Positions 1,689 to 54,056 of a stretch of 54,056 nt of DNA are shown piece after piece. This DNA comes from Pseudomonadota bacterium (GTDB lineage: Bacteria; Myxococcota_A; UBA9042; GCA-2863065). The notes below the pieces were generated by a model, which was not told where the DNA came from, searched no databases, and was given only the letters and a program-made list of their open reading frames with translations. How positions within the stretch are numbered: the first letter of the stretch is position 1; every line of letters starts with the position of its first letter. A program made the position numbers and the translations under genes. The stretch spans positions 1 through 54,056 of the forward strand of contig PKDL01000412.1 in assembly GCA_002863065.1 (NCBI GenBank), written 5' to 3'.

Positions 1689-3515
1689 ATGTCACGCTTG
1701 AATGGAACCGTACTTACTCTCGCGCTGCTTCTCGCCAGCACATCGTCTGCTAATTACAACAGCAAGTACGGGGAAGTACGCCTCAGTTCACTACCAGCGA
1801 AAGGTATGGTCAGTAAGAATATCTGGGTAGGCTCGTGGTGGAGCTACAAGATGAACGGTATTGCGTACCGCCAGAACGCAACGGGCGACATGCAGGTCGT
1901 CGACGATTCACTATCTGTCGTGAAGCAACTGCCCGAAGGCTGGCGTACTTCCGAGGACGTAACGCAGCTTTCTCCCGCCGAAAAATACGATAAATTACTC
2001 GGCCGGGACGACAGGATTGAGCGCGATAAAATCGCTGACTATCTTGCCCGAATTGGCGAAACAGAGGGTGAGATTACGGGAAAGATCGAGAGACGCCGCG
2101 AACTGATTCGCCTCCTCAACAAAGTCATCAAAGAGAATGAAGGGACTGAAGATTTTGATTGGAAAGAGACGGATATTGGTAAGGAATACACCGAGATAAA
2201 TGACAAAATCGAAGAGGCCGAAGATGCCCTCGCTGACCTACGGCCGGAGATCGACAGCGCGACCGAGTATGAGATTTGGAAGCACGGGGCAGCGCAATAT
2301 GGGGTGCAAAGTTGGTGGGGACATTGCAATGCCTGGGCCGCGGCTGCCGTGATGGAGCCCGAACCGCGTCAGTCCACGACCGTTGACGGAATCGAGTTCA
2401 CTGCTGGTGATGTGAAAGCATTACTGACCGAAGCATGGATGGAGCTTCAATCAAGTTTTTACGGCTCACGTAACGATTACCATGAAGATGAAGAGTCTCG
2501 GGATGCGATTGATTACAAAGATGTGACTCCCGCTGCCTTTCATATCTTTTTCGCGGACCAAGTCGGGAATCACGACAAAAGCTTTGTGATCGACCGATAC
2601 ACTGGTGATCAAGTGTGGAATCAACCCGTGAAAGCATACCGCTCGACTTTTGAGGCTCTCAATGATGGCCAACCCGTTACAAAGATGCTGGTGAGCACTC
2701 AGTATCCTCATTGGGGTGAGCCAGTTGTACGAGAACTACGGGAACAAGAGGTGTACGAGGTAGCGGTAACCACAACAATACACTGGGTGACAGATGGCGT
2801 GCCACATGAAGCGCTCACGGTAGAGAACTATTCAGACACGATAACCGACGAGCAGTTCGCAAGCTGGTCTTTCATTCGAGACGAATACCATGAGCAAATT
2901 GAAATTCGCACCCTCAGTTACACCCTATGGCTGACAGCGCCAATGGACGAACCTGATGCGGAGATCATTGGTGATGGTGAATGGAACCACGGGGAGTCAA
3001 CCGGGTACGAAGCGCTACATCCTGACTTCATGTGGCAGCCGACTGCGAACGTGAATGGTTCACGAGATTATGAAAACGACTTCATCGACTACGACACGAT
3101 CGTGGACAGATTACTTCCCGGTACGCTGAAGCCAGCGGACAATCCCATTGTAGAGCCCATCTCTGGCTATGTTTTTCAAGACCGGCATGACATTCCAGAT
3201 GCCGAGAAAGATGGCACTGTGCTGGACTTCAATGTGACTGGGACTGGTGTAGCCGCGGTGTCGAAAATGACCGTGACACTTCGGATCACTCACACCTACA
3301 TCGGCGACTTGCAGCTCATATTGGTTGGCCCGAATGGAAAAGAAGTCACTTTGAAGCGAAAAGGGATTGGTGGGAGCCGGGATGACCTGAACGACACCTT
3401 TGACGTCAGAGGGTTCAAGGGCATCCCAGCGGATGGAAACTGGCAGCTTCGGCTCATCGACCATGCCGAGGCTGATACCGGGTACATCACGTACGCCGAA
3501 CTAGGCTTCAAATAG
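1689..3515 (+). CDS. Secreted transglutaminase-elicitor (GP42-like) family protein with C-terminal proprotein-convertase P-domain
   Basis: Sec signal peptide; SWWGHCNAWAAAAVMEPEP, FTAGDVKALL and QVWNQPV are typical of the TGase_elicitor family; the C-terminal ITHTYIGDLQLILVGPNG...GNWQLRLID is a P_proprotein signature. SD GGAGG, 11 bp after the upstream stop. Confidence 0.8.
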   Translation: MSRLNGTVLTLALLLASTSSANYNSKYGEVRLSSLPAKGMVSKNIWVGSWWSYKMNGIAYRQNATGDMQVVDDSLSVVKQLPEGWRTSEDVTQLSPAEKYDKLLGRDDRIERDKIADYLARIGETEGEITGKIERRRELIRLLNKVIKENEGTEDFDWKETDIGKEYTEINDKIEEAEDALADLRPEIDSATEYEIWKHGAAQYGVQSWWGHCNAWAAAAVMEPEPRQSTTVDGIEFTAGDVKALLTEAWMELQSSFYGSRNDYHEDEESRDAIDYKDVTPAAFHIFFADQVGNHDKSFVIDRYTGDQVWNQPVKAYRSTFEALNDGQPVTKMLVSTQYPHWGEPVVRELREQEVYEVAVTTTIHWVTDGVPHEALTVENYSDTITDEQFASWSFIRDEYHEQIEIRTLSYTLWLTAPMDEPDAEIIGDGEWNHGESTGYEALHPDFMWQPTANVNGSRDYENDFIDYDTIVDRLLPGTLKPADNPIVEPISGYVFQDRHDIPDAEKDGTVLDFNVTGTGVAAVSKMTVTLRITHTYIGDLQLILVGPNGKEVTLKRKGIGGSRDDLNDTFDVRGFKGIPADGNWQLRLIDHAEADTGYITYAELGFK

Positions 3516-3773
3516 CTGGGTGTGGCTTGGTCAGCCATCCGGCGCCCTCCCCGGAGAGGCTGGGGAAGGCACCGAATCGGCGGCGCCAAGACCCACTTTT
3601 GAACACGAGAAATGGCACACCCGCGAGTCAAGACACCCTGGTATGGTCAGACTTTGACGTCTCGCGCGCTGGAGAATACGTCCCGGTATTGACGCACCAC
3701 ATGGTGACGCCCGTCACTCTGGGAGCAACTCCGCGCCGTTAAGATGAGGTGAAGTAGCTCTGTCAATCGGTGT

Positions 3774-4337
3774 TTATCGCCCGCGCAGGCCGCGCACCAG
3801 GGCACTTGCCCTGCCGACCCATTCGCCGATATCCAGGCGACTGGGAACGCGGATAGTAATCAGCATGCGGACCATCGACTGTGCAACGTCTGTCATATTG
3901 AGCAGTGTCCGTAGTCGGGCCAGATCGTATGGTTGACTCGCGCCCTCGATGAGTTCGGCTTCTTCCAGGGCCAGTTCGAAGGCATTGCGGGCTTGCTCTA
4001 AAATAGGCCACTCCCGTTGCTTGAGAACGCCGGCAATGGTTGGCCAGACATCGAGCTGTGCCTCGTACGGAGAATTCCGGTGCTCGGTCACCGGTCGTAC
4101 CAAGCCGCGCTCGATTAATTCCGCAATCACGCTACTCACGAGTGAACGGCTTATACCCAGGCGCTCAGCGATGGCGACCTGGGTGAGGGGTTCTTTATGT
4201 AAAACTAGGAGCGCCCAGACGCGGCCTAACACATTCTTGAATCCCCAATATTCTATAAACCCACCGACGGCGTCGCAGGCTTCAAGAATTGCAGTGTCTA
4301 ATCGCTCGGTATGTTCACGTGTTTCAGGACTACTCAT
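3774..4337 (-). CDS. GbsR/MarR-family transcriptional regulator
   Basis: FIEYWGFKNVLGRVWALLVL..EPLTQVAIAERLGISRSLVSSVIAELIERGLV is the GbsR-type wHTH pattern. Start trimmed to ATG 4337 (MSSPETREH). Confidence 0.8.
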   Translation of the reverse strand: MSSPETREHTERLDTAILEACDAVGGFIEYWGFKNVLGRVWALLVLHKEPLTQVAIAERLGISRSLVSSVIAELIERGLVRPVTEHRNSPYEAQLDVWPTIAGVLKQREWPILEQARNAFELALEEAELIEGASQPYDLARLRTLLNMTDVAQSMVRMLITIRVPSRLDIGEWVGRASALVRGLRGR

Positions 4338-47264: not shown

Positions 47265-47798
47265 GTGATATCCGCACCCATCGCCCTGCTCTTCCTCATC
47301 GCTCCACCCTCGTGCAGCTTGTTCGAGGGTACTGAGCATCTGCGTGGCCAGCCGCCGCTGACACTGGCCGGACTTATTGCGACGGCTCAGGACCCAAGCG
47401 CATATCGGCTCAGGAGCGCCGACTTAGACGTTAGCGCGCAGTCCTTTGGCCGCCCACTACTCATGTCGCTTACTTGGCAGCGTCCAGGAAAGCCAGCACC
47501 CGCAACAATGACCTGTACACAAAAGCGCGGTGGAACAAGCCAACTATCCCAATCTGCACCAGCCATTCTTTGCACTACTCGTGAGCAGCAGCATGTTGTA
47601 GGGACTGGACATGTACGATTCCATGACAGGAAGACGGCAACCGATTGGACAGTCCAAGCCACACAGACAGAGTTGCGTATGGCGGTCACGGGCCCCGAGG
47701 TGGGCTTCATTGCGGCTTGGAGAGAGAGACCGCCTGCACACTTTGTCCCATTATGGCTTGAATTCGGCACCCATGCGGTCCTCTGCTTGGTACTCTAG
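47265..47798 (+). CDS. Hypothetical protein (possible signal peptide/lipoprotein)
   Basis: Co-oriented ORF filling the gap; its stop overlaps the next start (TAGTG); hydrophobic N-terminus with Cys17. Confidence 0.55.
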   Translation: MISAPIALLFLIAPPSCSLFEGTEHLRGQPPLTLAGLIATAQDPSAYRLRSADLDVSAQSFGRPLLMSLTWQRPGKPAPATMTCTQKRGGTSQLSQSAPAILCTTREQQHVVGTGHVRFHDRKTATDWTVQATQTELRMAVTGPEVGFIAAWRERPPAHFVPLWLEFGTHAVLCLVL

Positions 47799-49510
47799 TG
47801 ACTGTGGGAATTGTACTGACCGGCTGCCTTTCGGTGGGATTTCTGTATTTGTGGATGGAGCAAATACGGGACGCCATTCCGGCTGCCTTACCTCGCAGAG
47901 AGTGGGTAGGGCTGGCCGTAATCACGACCTTGGCATGTGTTGCACGCGTTTTCTGGATTGGCCAATCCAGCCTCGAGCATTTGGAAGTGACGTATCTATT
48001 CGAGGCGGTGAAGCCCAGTACGCTACTGGACGTTGTTACTTCACGGCAGGCAGCGGAACAAATGCATCAGCCTCTCTACGCGCTGTTCCTGAGGGGATGG
48101 GCTCAGATCCGTATCGACGAAACATGGCTGCGAATACCTTCTGCAGTATTTTCTGCATGCTGCATTCCGTTGGCCTTTGGCTTAGTTCGACGTGAGTTGG
48201 GCGCGGTTTCAGCCTTACTTTTGGCTGTTTTGACCGCTACCGCACCGCTTTTAGTTTGGTATGGACGAGACGCCTCCCCGTATGCCCTATTGGCAGTATT
48301 ATCACTTTCTGCTGTGGTTTCCGCACGGCGGCTACTCGATGAACCTCACGGATGGTGGCGTGCAGTCCGGACCAGTATTTGGCTCGCACTGGCATTTTAC
48401 ACTCACTTCCTCGGTGCATGGGTTGCCGTTACGGTGGGCGTATGGCTTCTGCTCGCTCGTCGTGGTTTTAGCCGCGAGTTGTGGCGTGTAACTGGTGCTA
48501 CTGCACTGTGTTGTCTCCCTTGGCTTCCTGCCATGCTGATGAAGTTAGACACCTCTGTGAAAGGACTTGCTGAAGACCGCCCGATCATGGGCTACAGCCA
48601 TGAGATTGGAGAAGCGGTATCGGAAGCTCTACGCATGTTGTTTGGAGGAGTCACTCCGCTCTGGCTCGTCGTATTGGGTCTAGTGTTCTTAGGCACATGG
48701 ACTCTGTGGCGCCGGGGAAGTCCCCTGTCATCATTGGCGATAGCTGCGATGGCGATTGGGCTCCTGGCCGAAGCGCATATCACCTGGCAGATTCAGCAGT
48801 CCAAAGGGATTTTGTACGTAGACATACGCCATTATATCTACCTCGTCCCGGTCCTGCTTATGCCCATTGCTGCTATTCCTCGCTATTGGGCCACTGGCCT
48901 AGTCCTAGCGATACAACTATGGGCATCTACCCCGATTGTGATGGAGGAGCTTGAAAAGCCAGATGTACGTACAGCCGTCGAATATATACATAAGTACGCC
49001 GCACAGAGAACAGACTCTGACCGGCATGCTATCGCCTATTTACCTGCCCCATGGTACGAACCGCTTCTTGAATATTACCTCCTTGGAATTTGCGATGACT
49101 TAGGCCATGCACGTCGTCACGAGGGGTGGTGGAATGTAAAAACCTGCGACTTCCACGAGGGTCCGCAACCAGGCACCATCTACGGTTTCTCGCCTACACC
49201 GGAACGCGCATGGGCCTCGCGGCGGCGCCTTCAGCTCAATTATTTATGGGTGGTGAATATTCGTGATCATCGTTTTGGGCTGCCAGTACCCCCGACTGAT
49301 CCTCAGGAGCGCTACCTGTGTTGGACTGCTCGTGAAGACGGTTTGTTGGACAGACGTGCATTTGGTTCCTGGGTCACGGTTTCTCTGTACGATATGGCAA
49401 CACTACGTCAGCTGAAAACACCGCCATCGAACCCCCCGGACTCCTTGGTTCCGCGGGTGGTACGGGCTCATGATGCTTGGCCTCCGCAGTGCCAGGTCTA
49501 CAGTAATTAG
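47798..49510 (+). CDS. GT-C fold (PMT/ArnT, GT39/GT83-like) membrane glycosyltransferase
   Basis: Multi-TM protein with LEVTYL..QMHQPLYALFL..W..ETWLRIPSA and APLLVWYGRDASPYAL..FYTHF, plus a periplasmic C-terminal domain. Confidence 0.8.
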   Translation: MTVGIVLTGCLSVGFLYLWMEQIRDAIPAALPRREWVGLAVITTLACVARVFWIGQSSLEHLEVTYLFEAVKPSTLLDVVTSRQAAEQMHQPLYALFLRGWAQIRIDETWLRIPSAVFSACCIPLAFGLVRRELGAVSALLLAVLTATAPLLVWYGRDASPYALLAVLSLSAVVSARRLLDEPHGWWRAVRTSIWLALAFYTHFLGAWVAVTVGVWLLLARRGFSRELWRVTGATALCCLPWLPAMLMKLDTSVKGLAEDRPIMGYSHEIGEAVSEALRMLFGGVTPLWLVVLGLVFLGTWTLWRRGSPLSSLAIAAMAIGLLAEAHITWQIQQSKGILYVDIRHYIYLVPVLLMPIAAIPRYWATGLVLAIQLWASTPIVMEELEKPDVRTAVEYIHKYAAQRTDSDRHAIAYLPAPWYEPLLEYYLLGICDDLGHARRHEGWWNVKTCDFHEGPQPGTIYGFSPTPERAWASRRRLQLNYLWVVNIRDHRFGLPVPPTDPQERYLCWTAREDGLLDRRAFGSWVTVSLYDMATLRQLKTPPSNPPDSLVPRVVRAHDAWPPQCQVYSN

Positions 49511-49917: not shown

Positions 49918-52068
49918 CTAAAATTCGGCAGTCACACTAAGCTGTACATTGAGACCGGGTGCGTCAAAGCCCGAGCCATGTCTCCGATAGAGGCTATCGA
50001 ATACATTGGTGACTGCCAGATCTGTTCGAACGCTGGTTGAAAATCGATAGCCACCGCGTAGATCTGCGACGAGAAATCTCTTTGTACCATCGCATGGTGT
50101 TTGGAGCGTTCCCGAGTGTCGCGATTCTTCACAAATGCGAGCGTCTTTTTGATCTCCCGGAGACAGGGTTGTTTGTGGATTCGCGAATCGAGTACCGAAC
50201 TCAAAATACCACTTGCTTTCAGGCGCAGTGTATCGAACTCGCGCATTTCCAGAGAGTGGGGGGACGCGTCGTCCATTGACCGTAGTGCCATTGGAACCGG
50301 TATACGTATTTGTTATCCATGCGACCCCTCCAGCGACAAGCCATCGCCCAAAGCGGAGAGCCATGTCCCACTCCACTCCATGCGACTCTCCTCGTTCATT
50401 ATTCACGCGATGTGCCACACGCTTATTATCGATGGTGTCTTGACCCTGCCAGCTTGTGGCTTCTGACCCGATTGCATCTGACAGCATGGTGTAAAAATAT
50501 GCCGCTCGCATTTGCAATGGGCCAAGCTCGAGCTTGAACCCTGCTTCGATGGTATCGGTCCGCTCTGGTTCAAGCTCCGGGTTAGGGACCTCGAAGGTGG
50601 AACCAGTGTCACCTAGTACAGTGGTTTCCTGTAGGTTGGGTGCGCGAAATCCTTGTACGTATGTTGCATACATCGTCAGTGTATCTGGCAGTAATAACTC
50701 AAGACCAGCGCTTCCGACGATGCCGTTGAAATCGTATGCTACATCGCCGAGACCTGCTACGTCCGGGGCGAATGCGCTAAAGTAGGAGTACCTGATCCCT
50801 CCGAGGAGACGGAGCTGCACATCTTTCGAGGTGATATCCATCACCAATGCTTCGGCATGGGCATAGATCCCCAACGTAATGTACGTTGAGCCGTCAGAAA
50901 AATTTCCCCGTGTATTGGTTGTCCAGTCGAAGTTCGGTGCGCGGGCGTCCTGTCTATTGGATTGCACCATGTCATAGTAAGTATCGAGTCCAGTGCGGAG
51001 TGATACTCGTTTTTCCCAGACGCTGAGGCCTACCTCCAAGTCCGCACCTACCGTATCGGTGATGTCTTCATTGGCTCTTTTTTTGGTCACGGTGTTGAGA
51101 GATCGTGCTGCACAAGCCGCCCGATCACGAACAGTAGTCCCATTGAGGGTACAATTGAATCGGGAGACGTCTTCAACAAGACGCTGATAGCTCGCCGTGA
51201 TGCGGATGTGGTCAACAATGCCGTTACCCCATTCGAAGCGGGTATAAAGTAAGTGGTCATCATTGTCGTAAAGGCGTGTCTCGCCCATACCCAATCCGTC
51301 TGTTCTGCCGGCATTACGCATCAACATGCCAAAGTAGCCGAGTGAAACTGACCAGCGGTCTGGTGCGTAAAGAAGCTTTGCGCGCCAGTATCCTGCATCA
51401 TAGTCTGAGAGTGGCCAGGAACTTCCGTCGCCTACTCTCAGAGTGCCGAAATGATCAAAGGTACCGCCGAGCAGGAAACCAAAGTCATCGTAGGCACCTG
51501 TAAACATGAGAGTCGACCCGGCCGAGAGGTCGGCGGAAGCAAATCGCCCCCGCACCCGGCCTTGGTACTCGAAATTATCGTCAGCCTCGATAGGGACATC
51601 CGTGAGCATATTGATTACGCCACCGATAGCCCCGTTGCCGTAGAGTACGGACGATGCCCCACGGACTATTTCAATTCGGGATAGTGCATTGGGGTCTATT
51701 AGAGCCAGGTATTGATTGGGTCCCGTGCGATGCGTCGAGCTAGTGAGTCGAACGCCATCGACCAGTAGGAGATTTTGTGGGCCTACAAATCCGCGGATGA
51801 TAGGGGCGCCTGCACCGCGATTGGTTTGCTGCACATGAATACCTGTCTCATAGTCGAGTGCTTCAGGTACCGTTCTCGCTTGGAGTTCTTGTAGCCGTGT
51901 TGCCGATATGATGTTTAGAGAGCGCCCGGTTTCTAATGGGGTCCTCGCCAATCGGTTTGGCGTTACTATTACTGGGGTAAGCGTGTCGGGGTCGTCAGTC
52001 GGCGGAACAGCCCAGCATATGCTGGGACAGCACATCAGCATTATGAAGATTTGCTGTGAACATCGCAC
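49918..52068 (-). CDS. TonB-dependent receptor
   Basis: Signal peptide, TonB box (DTLTPVIVT), plug (IIRG..NLLLVDGVR..RIEIVRGASSVLYGNGAIGGVIN), barrel (QGFRAP, LEPE, NVFD..Y) and C-terminal F. Confidence 0.95.
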   Translation of the reverse strand: MRCSQQIFIMLMCCPSICWAVPPTDDPDTLTPVIVTPNRLARTPLETGRSLNIISATRLQELQARTVPEALDYETGIHVQQTNRGAGAPIIRGFVGPQNLLLVDGVRLTSSTHRTGPNQYLALIDPNALSRIEIVRGASSVLYGNGAIGGVINMLTDVPIEADDNFEYQGRVRGRFASADLSAGSTLMFTGAYDDFGFLLGGTFDHFGTLRVGDGSSWPLSDYDAGYWRAKLLYAPDRWSVSLGYFGMLMRNAGRTDGLGMGETRLYDNDDHLLYTRFEWGNGIVDHIRITASYQRLVEDVSRFNCTLNGTTVRDRAACAARSLNTVTKKRANEDITDTVGADLEVGLSVWEKRVSLRTGLDTYYDMVQSNRQDARAPNFDWTTNTRGNFSDGSTYITLGIYAHAEALVMDITSKDVQLRLLGGIRYSYFSAFAPDVAGLGDVAYDFNGIVGSAGLELLLPDTLTMYATYVQGFRAPNLQETTVLGDTGSTFEVPNPELEPERTDTIEAGFKLELGPLQMRAAYFYTMLSDAIGSEATSWQGQDTIDNKRVAHRVNNERGESHGVEWDMALRFGRWLVAGGVAWITNTYTGSNGTTVNGRRVPPLSGNARVRYTAPESKWYFEFGTRFANPQTTLSPGDQKDARICEESRHSGTLQTPCDGTKRFLVADLRGGYRFSTSVRTDLAVTNVFDSLYRRHGSGFDAPGLNVQLSVTAEF

Positions 52069-52099
52069 TGAACATGACCTCGCTAACTATTCGGGGCAG

Positions 52100-53440
52100 T
52101 TATCGTAGTCGATGCCGCCTTATGTCCCCGCTGCCAGGTGATTTTTGAAGTCGGATGCGCAGACTTTCTGGAGTTGATAGTCCAGGATCGTTACGTTGTG
52201 CTGCGAGTACAAGTGGGAGTGGTACGCCACCGATGGTAGTGTCGACGTCATTCGGCATTGGCTCGACGACGATACGATATTCGCCGTGATCAAACGGTAA
52301 ACCGGGTGCGACGCTGACTTGTTCTACCCGCTCACGCAGACCTTGTTTTTCGAATTCCATCGCACGATGAATGCAATAGGGATTGTTTCCTGGTCGCCCG
52401 AGCAGGCTACTAGAAGTCCAAGTACATCCTCCACGACAAATGTCCGCGTAGTAACAAGTCTGGCAGAAACCCCAGAGGTCGTTCCGAGTACGCTGGCGGA
52501 TGTGATTTATTTCAGGAGCGTGCTCAACCATATCTATGATAGGCCGGTCTAACACGTTGCCGCCCGAGTAGGTTTTGGTGGCTAAAGACGGACAGCCCTT
52601 CAGGGTCCCGTCGGCTTCAATGCCGAGACCCATGGAGCCCGCTGGACACCCGCGCCAATGTGCACCGGTATCACCATGATAACGAAGACGCTCTTCATAA
52701 GGAGAGAAGAACCCAACATTGTTTCCTGGGAACAGGCGGATTCCGTTCGGTTCGAGCTTGTGCTCCTTTATCCAGACCAACAATGGGAAAAGTTCGAGCA
52801 ACTCATACGGCTGCAGGAGCATGTCTGGCCTGTCAGCTGCTCTGCCCATAGCTACCGTGATCTGGACCTGCCAGGCTTTCGAGCCGATCTCTACCATCGT
52901 GTCCGCAACTGCGGGTAGTTCGGGTAATGACAGTCGGTTGACTTGAGTGTTTGTTGCTAGCCGTATCGGGCTTTTAGCGACGCGCTTTGCTGCCTCTACT
53001 GCACTCCGCCACGAACCTTTCACGCCGCGTTGAGCATCGTGCGTCTCCTCTAATCCATCGAGAGAAATGGAGATGGACCGCAGCCCAGCTTTGACAGCTA
53101 AGTCGAGCCTTTCCTGAGTCAGTCCGCGTGCGCCGGTTGTCATGCTGCACGCCATGCCACGGTCTGTAATTCGCTTAGCGATTAGCGGCCAATCATCTCG
53201 TAGGTACGCTTCACCACCAATGATTGTTACTTCGCGGGTACCAGCCTCAGCCAACTGGTCAATGACTCCGTAACACTCCTCGAGTGTCAGTTCTTGTGCC
53301 CTCGGTTTGCCTGCCCGGGATCCACAGGTTTTGCATCCCAGGTCACACTTTAAAGTAAGCTCCCAAACCACATATACGGGAGTCGGTCTCTTAAAGTCCT
53401 GGTCAGTAGGCGTGCGAACGAGATCACGAGTGCCCGCCAT
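52100..53440 (-). CDS. PlpX-like radical SAM/SPASM maturase (splicease family; TIGR04103/TIGR03913-like)
   Basis: VVWELTLKCDLGCKTCGSRAGK..EL, IIGGEAYLRDDW, WQVQITVAMGRAAD, GNNVGFF, and SPASM WRGCPAG..LGIEADGTLKGCPSL..LWGFCQTCYYADICRGGCTWT..GNNPYCIHRA, all characteristic of PlpX-type enzymes. Confidence 0.85.
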   Translation of the reverse strand: MAGTRDLVRTPTDQDFKRPTPVYVVWELTLKCDLGCKTCGSRAGKPRAQELTLEECYGVIDQLAEAGTREVTIIGGEAYLRDDWPLIAKRITDRGMACSMTTGARGLTQERLDLAVKAGLRSISISLDGLEETHDAQRGVKGSWRSAVEAAKRVAKSPIRLATNTQVNRLSLPELPAVADTMVEIGSKAWQVQITVAMGRAADRPDMLLQPYELLELFPLLVWIKEHKLEPNGIRLFPGNNVGFFSPYEERLRYHGDTGAHWRGCPAGSMGLGIEADGTLKGCPSLATKTYSGGNVLDRPIIDMVEHAPEINHIRQRTRNDLWGFCQTCYYADICRGGCTWTSSSLLGRPGNNPYCIHRAMEFEKQGLRERVEQVSVAPGLPFDHGEYRIVVEPMPNDVDTTIGGVPLPLVLAAQRNDPGLSTPESLRIRLQKSPGSGDIRRHRLR

Positions 53441-53445
53441 GTCAG

Positions 53446-54056
53446 TTAGCTCTCCATCGAATCGGTCGCATCGGACGTATCAACCCCAGGTGCGCCATAC
53501 AGAGGTTGGGGTGGAGGCTCGGTGCCATCCGTTGTGTCTATCGAATCCGTCGCGTCTGCGCCGGTATCCGTCGCGTCTGCGCCGGTATCCGTCGCGTCTG
53601 CGCCGGTATCCGTCGCGTCTGTACCGGTATCCGTCGCGTCTGCGCCGGTATCCGTCGCGTCTGTACCGGTATCCTTGCCGTCAGATTCAGTCGCAGCTCC
53701 ATCGCTGCCGTCAGATTCGTCACCTTCATCGATGCCGGGTCCACCGTAATCCATCTCGCTCGCGGATTCGGTGCCTTCTGTGAAGTCTATTCCTTCAGCA
53801 AAGCTTAGTGAGATTTCTTCGTTTGAAACATCACTAATCGTAGCTAATGAAAGCTCACGATTACGCATTGAAAAACGTTGCTGATTCGAAGTTGACCTAC
53901 TTCGTGAAGTTTGCGACGAATTTGTTTCCGAACGTGCGCGACTTCGTGCCGCGTAACGTTCCGGATGCATCGATAAGATACTTCTTGGACTTTGTCCGGA
54001 ATTAGTACTAGAGTATATATTGTTTTGAACGGAAAAATCAATATCTTCAGTTTCAT
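53446..54056 (-). CDS. Acidic repeat protein with DYG and LYG motifs; probable splicease substrate (5' end uncertain or beyond the window)
   Basis: Its stop lies 5 nt before the rSAM start. Encodes SEMDYGGPG..(DTG[A/T]DAT)6..PPPQPLYGAPG. The frame has no stop up to base 54056; internal ATGs at 53970 and 53868. Confidence 0.75.
   Translation of the reverse strand, partial: ETEDIDFSVQNNIYSSTNSGQSPRSILSMHPERYAARSRARSETNSSQTSRSRSTSNQQRFSMRNRELSLATISDVSNEEISLSFAEGIDFTEGTESASEMDYGGPGIDEGDESDGSDGAATESDGKDTGTDATDTGADATDTGTDATDTGADATDTGADATDTGADATDSIDTTDGTEPPPQPLYGAPGVDTSDATDSMES
53545..53674. repeat. 6.2 copies of a 21-bp in-frame tandem repeat
   Basis: ATCCGTCGCGTCTG(CG/TA)CCGGT x6 plus ATCC; encodes DTG(A/T)DAT on the minus strand. 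Confidence 0.97.

Follow-up and report, generated by a model that had tools for sequence, protein, structure and literature searches.

To our knowledge, no route to ribosomal alpha-keto-beta-amino acids is known other than spliceases. Among these, the type I enzymes of cyanobacteria (PlpX/PlpY/PlpA, PcpXYA; TIGR04103) require a Y protein (PMC11414181), and hundreds of later pathways from diverse bacteria are Y-less and, in the summary of Scott et al. (Chem 2022) given in the same source, are typed by enzyme phylogeny and precursor class (PMC11414181). According to PMC10849128, the survey of Scott et al. sought YG-rich open reading frames (ORFs) adjoining radical S-adenosylmethionine (rSAM)-SPASM genes, and reported 189 genera and 27 confirmed pairs. 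For the binary, Y-less systems (type II RhaX/RhaA; RasX/RasA or RcsX/RcsA, Rheinheimera), a proposal holds that the leader contributes the activating element, which in other systems comes from the Y protein, and modification works on whole proteins (PMC11414181, PMC11626197). In binary systems of Rheinheimera, LYG and MYG sites are spliced almost quantitatively, and the ketoamide is essential for protease inhibition (PMC11626197); what spliceotide pathways produce in their hosts, and to what end, has yet to be established (PMC9811515, PMC8868522). Here we analyzed a gene pair near the right-hand end of a 54,056-nt contig (PKDL01000412.1, assembly GCA_002863065.1, hereafter the window) from a Pseudomonadota bacterium that GTDB places in Myxococcota_A, in which an rSAM/SPASM enzyme gene directly follows a gene for an acidic protein carrying YG motifs. 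We conclude that the pair is probably a two-gene, Y-less cassette of the spliceotide type, belonging to a large Myxococcota family, in which the tail of the partner protein would be spliced and the protein exported, lipidated and anchored in the envelope.

At least 532 loci encoding relatives of the window enzyme were found in a scan with one genome per species, and 81 were compared, namely the best 80 of these relatives plus L001, a 6.7-kb contig from a Myxococcota metagenome-assembled genome (MAG; GCA_036127235.1) that shows 97% identity across window 52094-53799 and is wholly different from there on. A partner ORF with a predicted zinc ribbon, a lipobox-like motif and YG motifs adjoins the enzyme gene in 65 of the 81 loci, upstream in 48 and downstream in 17. 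Among the 53 loci closest to the window (Myxococcota, Bradymonadia; 55-65% enzyme identity) an L001-type ORF lies directly upstream in 48, and the same kind of partner lies directly downstream in 17 of the remaining 28, sometimes as two or three tandem copies. Clustering of neighboring genes returned the partner as the sole conserved neighbor, and the reciprocal check agreed, since each of the three partners that we looked up after retrieval with a partner profile (alignment A2, described below) directly adjoins an rSAM/SPASM gene. Tyrosine in the partner tails lies almost exclusively in YG: in 48 partners 106 of 113 tail tyrosines are followed by glycine, where 12.5 would be expected (binomial P about 6e-92), and 99 of the 106 sites have a proline at +2 to +4. 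As a consensus the sites read P-x-Y-G-(I/A/L/G/V)-P-P, and the median distance between the last of them and the C-terminus is 8 residues. The YG motifs that the first-pass annotation, made from the letters of the window, had singled out are strongly conserved in homologous loci.

The partners have a common architecture. In L001 the protein is 289 aa long and has a predicted zinc ribbon (CPAC...CPFC) at its N-terminus; its hydrophobic segment has FASC as its last residues and leads into a tail made of three 81-nt units that each encode DYGGPG, six heptads and a terminal PLYGAPG. More generally, partners of 100-400 aa have a ribbon of the form CPxCxxH(I/V)(R/K)...CPFC; after it come a basic stretch and a hydrophobic segment that a lipobox-like Cys closes, and their acidic tail, rich in Pro, holds between one and five x-Y-G sites. 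The A2 profile was built from the N-terminal module alone (zinc ribbon to lipobox), with the tails left out, and in it C15, C18, H21, C33, C36 and the lipobox Cys are invariant; the lipobox Cys is unchanged in two independent alignments, with A, G or S at -1 in most sequences. In the place of the short, positively charged n-region of a lipoprotein signal, these proteins have the zinc-ribbon module, which is 40-70 aa long and includes a basic stretch. The 688 proteins that the profile matched lack Pfam domains, carry the label 'hypothetical' or no name, and include proteins of the cultured species Lujinxingia litoralis and L. vulgaris; x-Y-G-(A/G/I/V)-P is present in the tails of nearly all 44 of the retrieved sequences that were fetched. 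No curated family for the partner exists in Pfam or NCBIfam, and when five full-length partners were searched against both, no Nif11/NHLP leader was matched and all zinc-ribbon matches fell below threshold. In the AlphaFold2 (AF2) model of one partner the ribbon alone is confident, with short strands and a predicted local distance difference test (pLDDT) score of 73-87, and the tail is predicted to be disordered, as is expected of a peptide-like substrate.

The window copy of the partner gene is truncated, which is why it lacks the lipobox segment; the N-terminal zinc ribbon and two further DYG units of L001 are absent as well. What it encodes is the acidic, disordered tail, in which a single DYGGPG unit is joined by six repeats of the heptad and, at the C-terminus, PLYGAPG; both tyrosines in this genuine part lie in Y-G-x-P-G. 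Its LYG site, 15 residues before the C-terminus, fits the family consensus and the core of a Nostoc Nif11 precursor (ALYGLPP), and its DYG site belongs to an 81-nt unit (53720-53796 plus 4 nt) whose DYGGPG recurs in the relative L005. The unit is present once in the window (53720-53796) and three times in L001 (4700-4960), and the single copy may be an assembly collapse. Both motifs occupy exactly the positions at which the first-pass annotation had read them, and the enzyme gene begins 5 nt after the gene that carries them, again as it had described.

Natural gene fusions join the two proteins in two different ways. In a Polyangiaceae MAG (L066, JBKQKP010000282.1, 5854-7437) the rSAM ORF is in frame with a hydrophobic/lipobox segment and three LYGPAP sites, and the arrangement looks like the result of deleting the stop codon and the zinc ribbon. 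In two alphaproteobacterial loci (L088 3728-5350, on the Tropicibacter oceani plasmid NZ_CP124618.1, and L050 4585-7350) a zinc ribbon is instead fused to the rSAM N-terminus. Each fusion is known from one or two records; taken as a set, they connect the enzyme with the tail, as its substrate, and with the ribbon, as a docking module, and the zinc ribbon is most likely the leader on which the enzyme docks. The Tropicibacter cluster further encodes a second rSAM, a phosphotransferase with FYGLPPG, a trypsin-like peptidase and an M23 peptidase, and no obvious YG-repeat substrate was seen in it.

The enzyme itself was placed by profile scores, identities and a rough neighbor-joining (NJ) tree. 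Pfam identifies Radical_SAM (PF04055) and SPASM (PF13186, residues 265-330), and the best NCBIfam families by far are TIGR04103 ('nif11-class peptide radical SAM maturase 3', the PlpX type; 477.9 bits, E 2e-143, over 374 residues) and TIGR03913 ('GDL motif peptide-associated radical SAM/SPASM maturase'; 463.3 bits), with the third-best family at just 160 bits. Neither score reaches its curated cutoff (725 and 591.75 bits, respectively), nor does that of any of the ten clade representatives scanned (435-527 bits on TIGR04103), and 'PlpX-type', the label given in the first-pass annotation, is therefore valid at the level of the superfamily only and not of the equivalog. The grouping with splicease-like rather than other SPASM families, on which that annotation had made its proposal depend, holds in scores, identities and tree alike. 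By tblastn against annotated plasmids, the enzyme of Nostoc sp. C057, annotated as a PlpX-type equivalog, shares 50.5% local (46% global) identity with the window enzyme, and GDL-motif-type enzymes from Azospirillum, Burkholderia and related bacteria share about 49-50% local identity (45% global for the one aligned). The tree gathers the upstream-precursor loci, Tropicibacter among them, into the clade of the window, apart from a branch that holds the Nostoc enzyme together with the downstream-precursor Myxococcota clade. Judged on these comparisons, the window enzyme appears to belong to a distinct, unnamed clade of the splicease-like superfamily.

The three CX3CX2C cysteines and the seven cysteines of the SPASM region are unchanged throughout 21 homologues, and the latter would be assigned to two auxiliary Fe-S clusters. 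The AF2 model (pLDDT 85.7, predicted template modelling score 0.88) finds its closest solved folds in SkfB, PqqE, SuiB and anSME (Foldseek E 9e-17 to 1e-10), and the PDB copy that we searched held no solved splicease structure. Past GNNPYC, enzymes of the window clade have a tail of 79-90 aa versus about 45-55 aa in other clades, so that about 35 aa are particular to the clade with an upstream partner gene; this extension is conserved, with the pattern I-x-G-x-x-L...W...RL, and is modelled at pLDDT 82-92 over residues 371-430. Any role that it might have would be a matter of inference.

Compared with type I systems, the cassette shares the rSAM/SPASM superfamily, an adjacent precursor gene and the x-Y-G target, and the Nostoc Nif11 precursor, which ends ...SIALYGLPPELF, has the same x-Y-G-x-P-P core as the window family. 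It differs in having neither a Nif11/NHLP leader nor a score above the TIGR04103 cutoff; its partners, 100-400 aa long, combine as many as five sites with a zinc ribbon and a hydrophobic/lipobox segment, and the family belongs to Myxococcota whereas type I is cyanobacterial. The Nostoc locus also has a 71-aa ORF after the X gene, in the position of PlpY, whereas the window cassette has no separate Y protein: no PlpY-like ORF lies between the partner and rSAM genes, and no small conserved Y-type (PlpY, RiPP recognition element (RRE)-like; RiPP, peptide made by the ribosome and modified after translation) ORF was found in the flanks. The first-pass annotation had remarked on this absence, correctly for the space between the genes, although Y-less binary systems had already been described (PMC11414181). 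The likeness to those binary systems lies in their two components and in LYG, MYG and DYG core sites; there the leader is a helical peptide, whereas here a zinc ribbon and a signal-like hydrophobic segment precede repeated sites in a disordered acidic tail, and the enzyme has its clade-specific C-terminal extension. GDL-type systems such as that of Azospirillum lipoferum 4B plasmid AZO_p3 resemble the cassette in the enzyme (463 bits, about 45-50% identity) and differ in their partners, which are DUF1843 proteins of about 60 aa with an N-terminal site and a GDL motif and without zinc ribbon, lipobox or acidic repeats; no DUF1843/GDL-motif peptide was found in the window or L001. Two of the three DUF1843 'GDL motif' peptides beside the curated TIGR03913 enzyme on AZO_p3 (L087 3070-3770) have an x-Y-G near the N-terminus (MLYGG, KPYGV), which suggests that the TIGR03913 family also targets YG sites. 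SkfB (6EFN), PqqE (6C8V), SuiB (5V1S) and anSME (4K36) share the partial TIM barrel, a SPASM/twitch domain and peptide substrates, and differ in identity (16-22%) and in chemistry (thioether, C-C cross-link, formylglycine).

Taken together, these features can be ordered into a maturation scheme. In the cytoplasm the rSAM/SPASM enzyme would bind the precursor, probably through the zinc-ribbon/leader part and possibly with help from the clade-specific C-terminal extension, abstract a hydrogen at each x-Y-G site and excise a tyramine equivalent (C8H9NO, -135.06 Da), converting the x-Y-G sites of the disordered tail to ketoamide residues. As the invariant lipobox-like Cys suggests, the modified protein would then leave by Sec, be lipidated at this Cys and lose its zinc-ribbon/signal 'leader' to signal peptidase II. 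The outcome would be a polyanionic protein that is anchored in the envelope and bears several electrophilic ketoamide warheads. Most plausibly it would inhibit proteases, a plausible role in these largely predatory lineages. That a splicease-family rSAM acts on an adjacent non-Nif11 acidic YG protein, as had been proposed from the window, is supported by the family and by the sites. The gene pairing, the site conservation, the family relationship, the fusions and the disorder of the tail were observed here, and the excision chemistry, the order of events, export, lipidation and the biological role are the parts that we infer. A more specific version, in which a zinc ribbon placed before a lipoprotein signal peptide is the leader, signal peptidase II serves as the RiPP leader protease and the C-terminal extension of the enzyme replaces the Y protein, strikes us as possible though rather doubtful. 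The literature that we found contained no description of such a precursor class and maturation logic, and a search linking spliceases or spliceotides to zinc, lipoproteins or myxobacteria returned nothing relevant. Since the Scott et al. survey sought YG-rich ORFs beside rSAM-SPASM genes, the Myxococcota clade and its zinc-ribbon precursors are likely at least catalogued there; we rate as moderate the chance that precursors of this zinc-ribbon/lipobox class, and the logic of their maturation, are themselves undescribed.

The acidic YG protein could instead be an envelope or regulatory neighbor, with the real substrate a small peptide or metabolite encoded elsewhere. Its large size and low complexity, unlike classical RiPP precursors, and the lack of a match to any curated precursor family would fit such a role, but a mere neighbor would not be expected to stay paired with the enzyme in both gene orders and in the reciprocal search, to confine its tyrosines almost exclusively to YG, to be joined to the enzyme by two kinds of fusion and to be its only conserved neighbor, and we consider this very unlikely. 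We give still less credence to an arrangement that unites the cassette with the downstream TonB-dependent receptor in a single system, through which an acidic peptide, modified and metal-binding, would be exported and taken up again. In its favor are the strong acidity of the tail and the position of the receptor gene, which lies 31 nt beyond the rSAM gene on that strand, the interval holding no terminator-like site; a tblastn search with the receptor, however, matched none of the 81 related loci, and neighbor clustering shows no conserved downstream gene. A metatranscriptome contig from run X10 covers 53300-53586 and crosses the gene junction, consistent with a single transcript for the pair, and the RNA contigs include this junction and not the receptor gene. 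The receptor, which the first-pass annotation had named together with substrate and enzyme, was therefore rejected as a part of the system.

Several observations weigh against the spliceotide-type reading that we prefer. Co-translational insertion would put the tail beyond the reach of a cytoplasmic enzyme, a zinc ribbon of 40-70 aa ahead of a lipoprotein signal is atypical, and AF2 predicted no helix for the hydrophobic segment of the partner. Three of the four sites in L001 are DYG, and the characterised splicease RcsX left a DYG site unmodified (PMC11626197). The L066 fusion comes from a single MAG contig and may be an assembly or frameshift artefact, the X10 RNA contig may derive from contaminating DNA, and the literature that we found gave no mass-spectrometric or genetic data for any clade member. 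Finally, the window enzyme scores below both curated cutoffs and the tree parts its clade from the branch with the Nostoc enzyme, and identical chemistry is therefore not guaranteed. Because the clade lies outside the curated equivalogs, the main rival is a different radical chemistry at the same x-Y-G-x-P sites, such as a Tyr-centered cross-link, epimerisation, hydroxylation or side-chain cleavage. Every clade member tested fell below the TIGR04103 and TIGR03913 cutoffs, the clade is separate in the tree, diverged from the characterised spliceases and equipped with its own C-terminal extension, and SPASM enzymes of similar fold catalyse many different reactions. Yet the 46-50% identity shared with a curated PlpX-type enzyme is, by the standards of rSAM maturases, high, the site motif (x-Y-G, then Pro-Pro) matches the core of the Nostoc Nif11 precursor, and the characterised members of the superfamily in the literature that we found all excise tyramine at XYG (PMC11414181, PMC11626197, PMC9811515). 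On this balance we judge another chemistry to be unlikely, and we retain tyramine excision as the probable reaction.

Table 1. Features of the gene pair and its surroundings in the window.
Feature	Positions	Strand	Basis
rSAM/SPASM maturase gene, 446 aa, ATG start	52100-53440	minus	ORF list, Pfam, NCBIfam, AF2
CX3CX2C radical-SAM cluster motif: C32, C36, C39 (CDLGCKTC)	53324-53347	minus	translation
SPASM region, seven Cys: C265, C283, C326-x2-C329-x5-C335-x3-C339, C356	52373-52648	minus	alignment
C-terminal extension of the enzyme, residues about 397-446	52103-52252	minus	tail-length comparison, alignment, AF2
Gene junction: 5-nt spacer; partner stop TAA; SD-like (Shine-Dalgarno-like) GGAGAG	53441-53445; 53446-53448; 53450-53455	minus	sequence
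Genuine 3' part of the partner gene, 110 codons plus stop	53446-53778	minus	L001 alignment, environmental DNA contigs
L-Y-G predicted splice site in P-P-P-Q-P-L-Y-G-A-P-G	53494-53502	minus	coordinates verified
D-Y-G predicted splice site in S-E-M-D-Y-G-G-P-G	53743-53751	minus	coordinates verified
Tandem repeat of 21 nt (6.2 copies) in the acidic spacer, encoding the heptad (T/A)DATDTG	53545-53674	minus	Tandem Repeats Finder
21-nt stretch common to the genuine gene and the foreign tail; likely join point (k = 21 overlap)	53779-53799	.	L001 alignment end, contig starts
Foreign low-GC (guanine plus cytosine) sequence at the contig end, outside the system	53800-54056	.	GC, locus matches, contigs
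TonB-dependent receptor gene, best match TonB-hemin subfamily, below cutoff	49918-52068	minus, same as rSAM	ORF list

At the gene junction (Table 1), the Shine-Dalgarno-like GGAGAG sits within the last codons of the partner gene, 9 nt upstream of the rSAM ATG, and here too the first-pass annotation had read the sequence correctly in placing the ribosome-binding site of the enzyme gene inside the 3' end of its neighbor. Promoter and terminator scans gave results at the level of shuffled sequence.

The right-hand end of the contig calls for caution, since window 53779-54056 is most likely a chimeric assembly join. Environmental DNA contigs match the window gene up to 53778, and the sequence to the right of 53778/53799, which adjoins the gene in the window and nowhere else, has a GC content of 40% versus 61% in the gene, with no match in L001, in any locus or in any other fetched sequence. 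On the gene side, contigs from DNA runs X2, X3 and X4 contain a joint 53796->53720, that is, a tandem copy of the 81-nt unit, and those of X2 and X4 run beyond 53778 encoding ...DQFDEIDVV, like L001. On the tail side, contigs from RNA runs X11, X12 and X14 and from DNA run X18 match the window from 53779 and continue leftwards into unrelated sequence, so that the left neighbor of the tail is TGGGCCGGT(T/C)CCACAATTATGCAA(T/C)CCGAG and not the gene. Exactly 21 nt are common to both sides, which is what a short-k-mer assembly join would leave, and run X1, the best match to the window sequence, held no contig bridging 53617-53838. The substrate gene as first read is therefore genuine in its 3' part only: neither the ATG at 53970 nor the opening 57-64 codons of the ORF (174 aa) belong to the partner gene, 57 of these codons lying wholly in foreign sequence and seven more in the common 21-mer. 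Its N-terminus (MHPERYAARS...) was accordingly rejected, having no relatives, a low GC content and another left neighbor in four runs. The gene should not be cloned or interpreted as written, and extending the contig past 54056, as had been suggested, would not uncover the rest of the system.

The foreign tail occurs in three seawater metatranscriptomes and one DNA run with the other left neighbor and reads in frame as ...SLSFAEGIDF-LGLHNCGTGP, and it may thus be part of an expressed gene of another organism; an Rfam scan of the window end gave a chance-level match only. A separate irregular copy was seen in an ENA contig (P0133, 126 aa), which has 85% identity to the L001 N-terminus and an unrelated tail, with the cysteines of the first knuckle replaced (ACPACG -> AWPAFG); it is probably a frameshifted or error-laden copy of the same gene in another assembly.

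Candidates for an accessory gene (protease, transporter, RRE) were sought among the neighbors, where, beside the partner, only a Ser/Thr-kinase/TPR cluster recurs (13 loci), which we regard as noise from Myxococcota paralogues. L001 has, upstream of the substrate gene and divergent from it, a gene for a B12-binding rSAM (2748-4292), with rpoD and dnaG after it, and this rSAM gene was not seen beside the cassette in other loci. Likewise, the PMT_2/GT39-like membrane glycosyltransferase encoded on the other strand of the window (47798-49510) is not conserved beside the cassette. Six Myxococcota loci (L057, L060, L072, L073, L075, L078) encode a protein of ~290-390 aa without a Pfam match directly upstream of the rSAM gene (e.g. 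L078 3995-5167), and at least four of the six also have a zinc-ribbon precursor downstream. Four of their C-termini were read: L060 and L078 end in ...(S/R)YGFVPEAR..GYRF, L057 in ...RYGVVP...GWHID and L073 in ...TYGIVP...GWRIE. The GYRF ending looks like the C-terminus of an outer-membrane beta-barrel with a Y-G-x-V-P motif of its own. Four alphaproteobacterial loci (L054, L056, L058, L059; Brevundimonas, Mesorhizobium) have an upstream protein of ~190-230 aa with one (I/V)-I-Y-G-V site in a hydrophobic stretch and a second rSAM gene after the first; this partner is of another class than that of the Myxococcota.

The enzyme family to which the window cassette belongs is very large and has no curated family model, and the architecture of its substrates points to a specific destination, the envelope, and to splicing at several sites within a whole protein. 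If the more specific version of the scheme is true, spliceotides would gain a defined cellular destination, an idea that the cultured members of the family, Lujinxingia vulgaris and L. litoralis, make directly testable.

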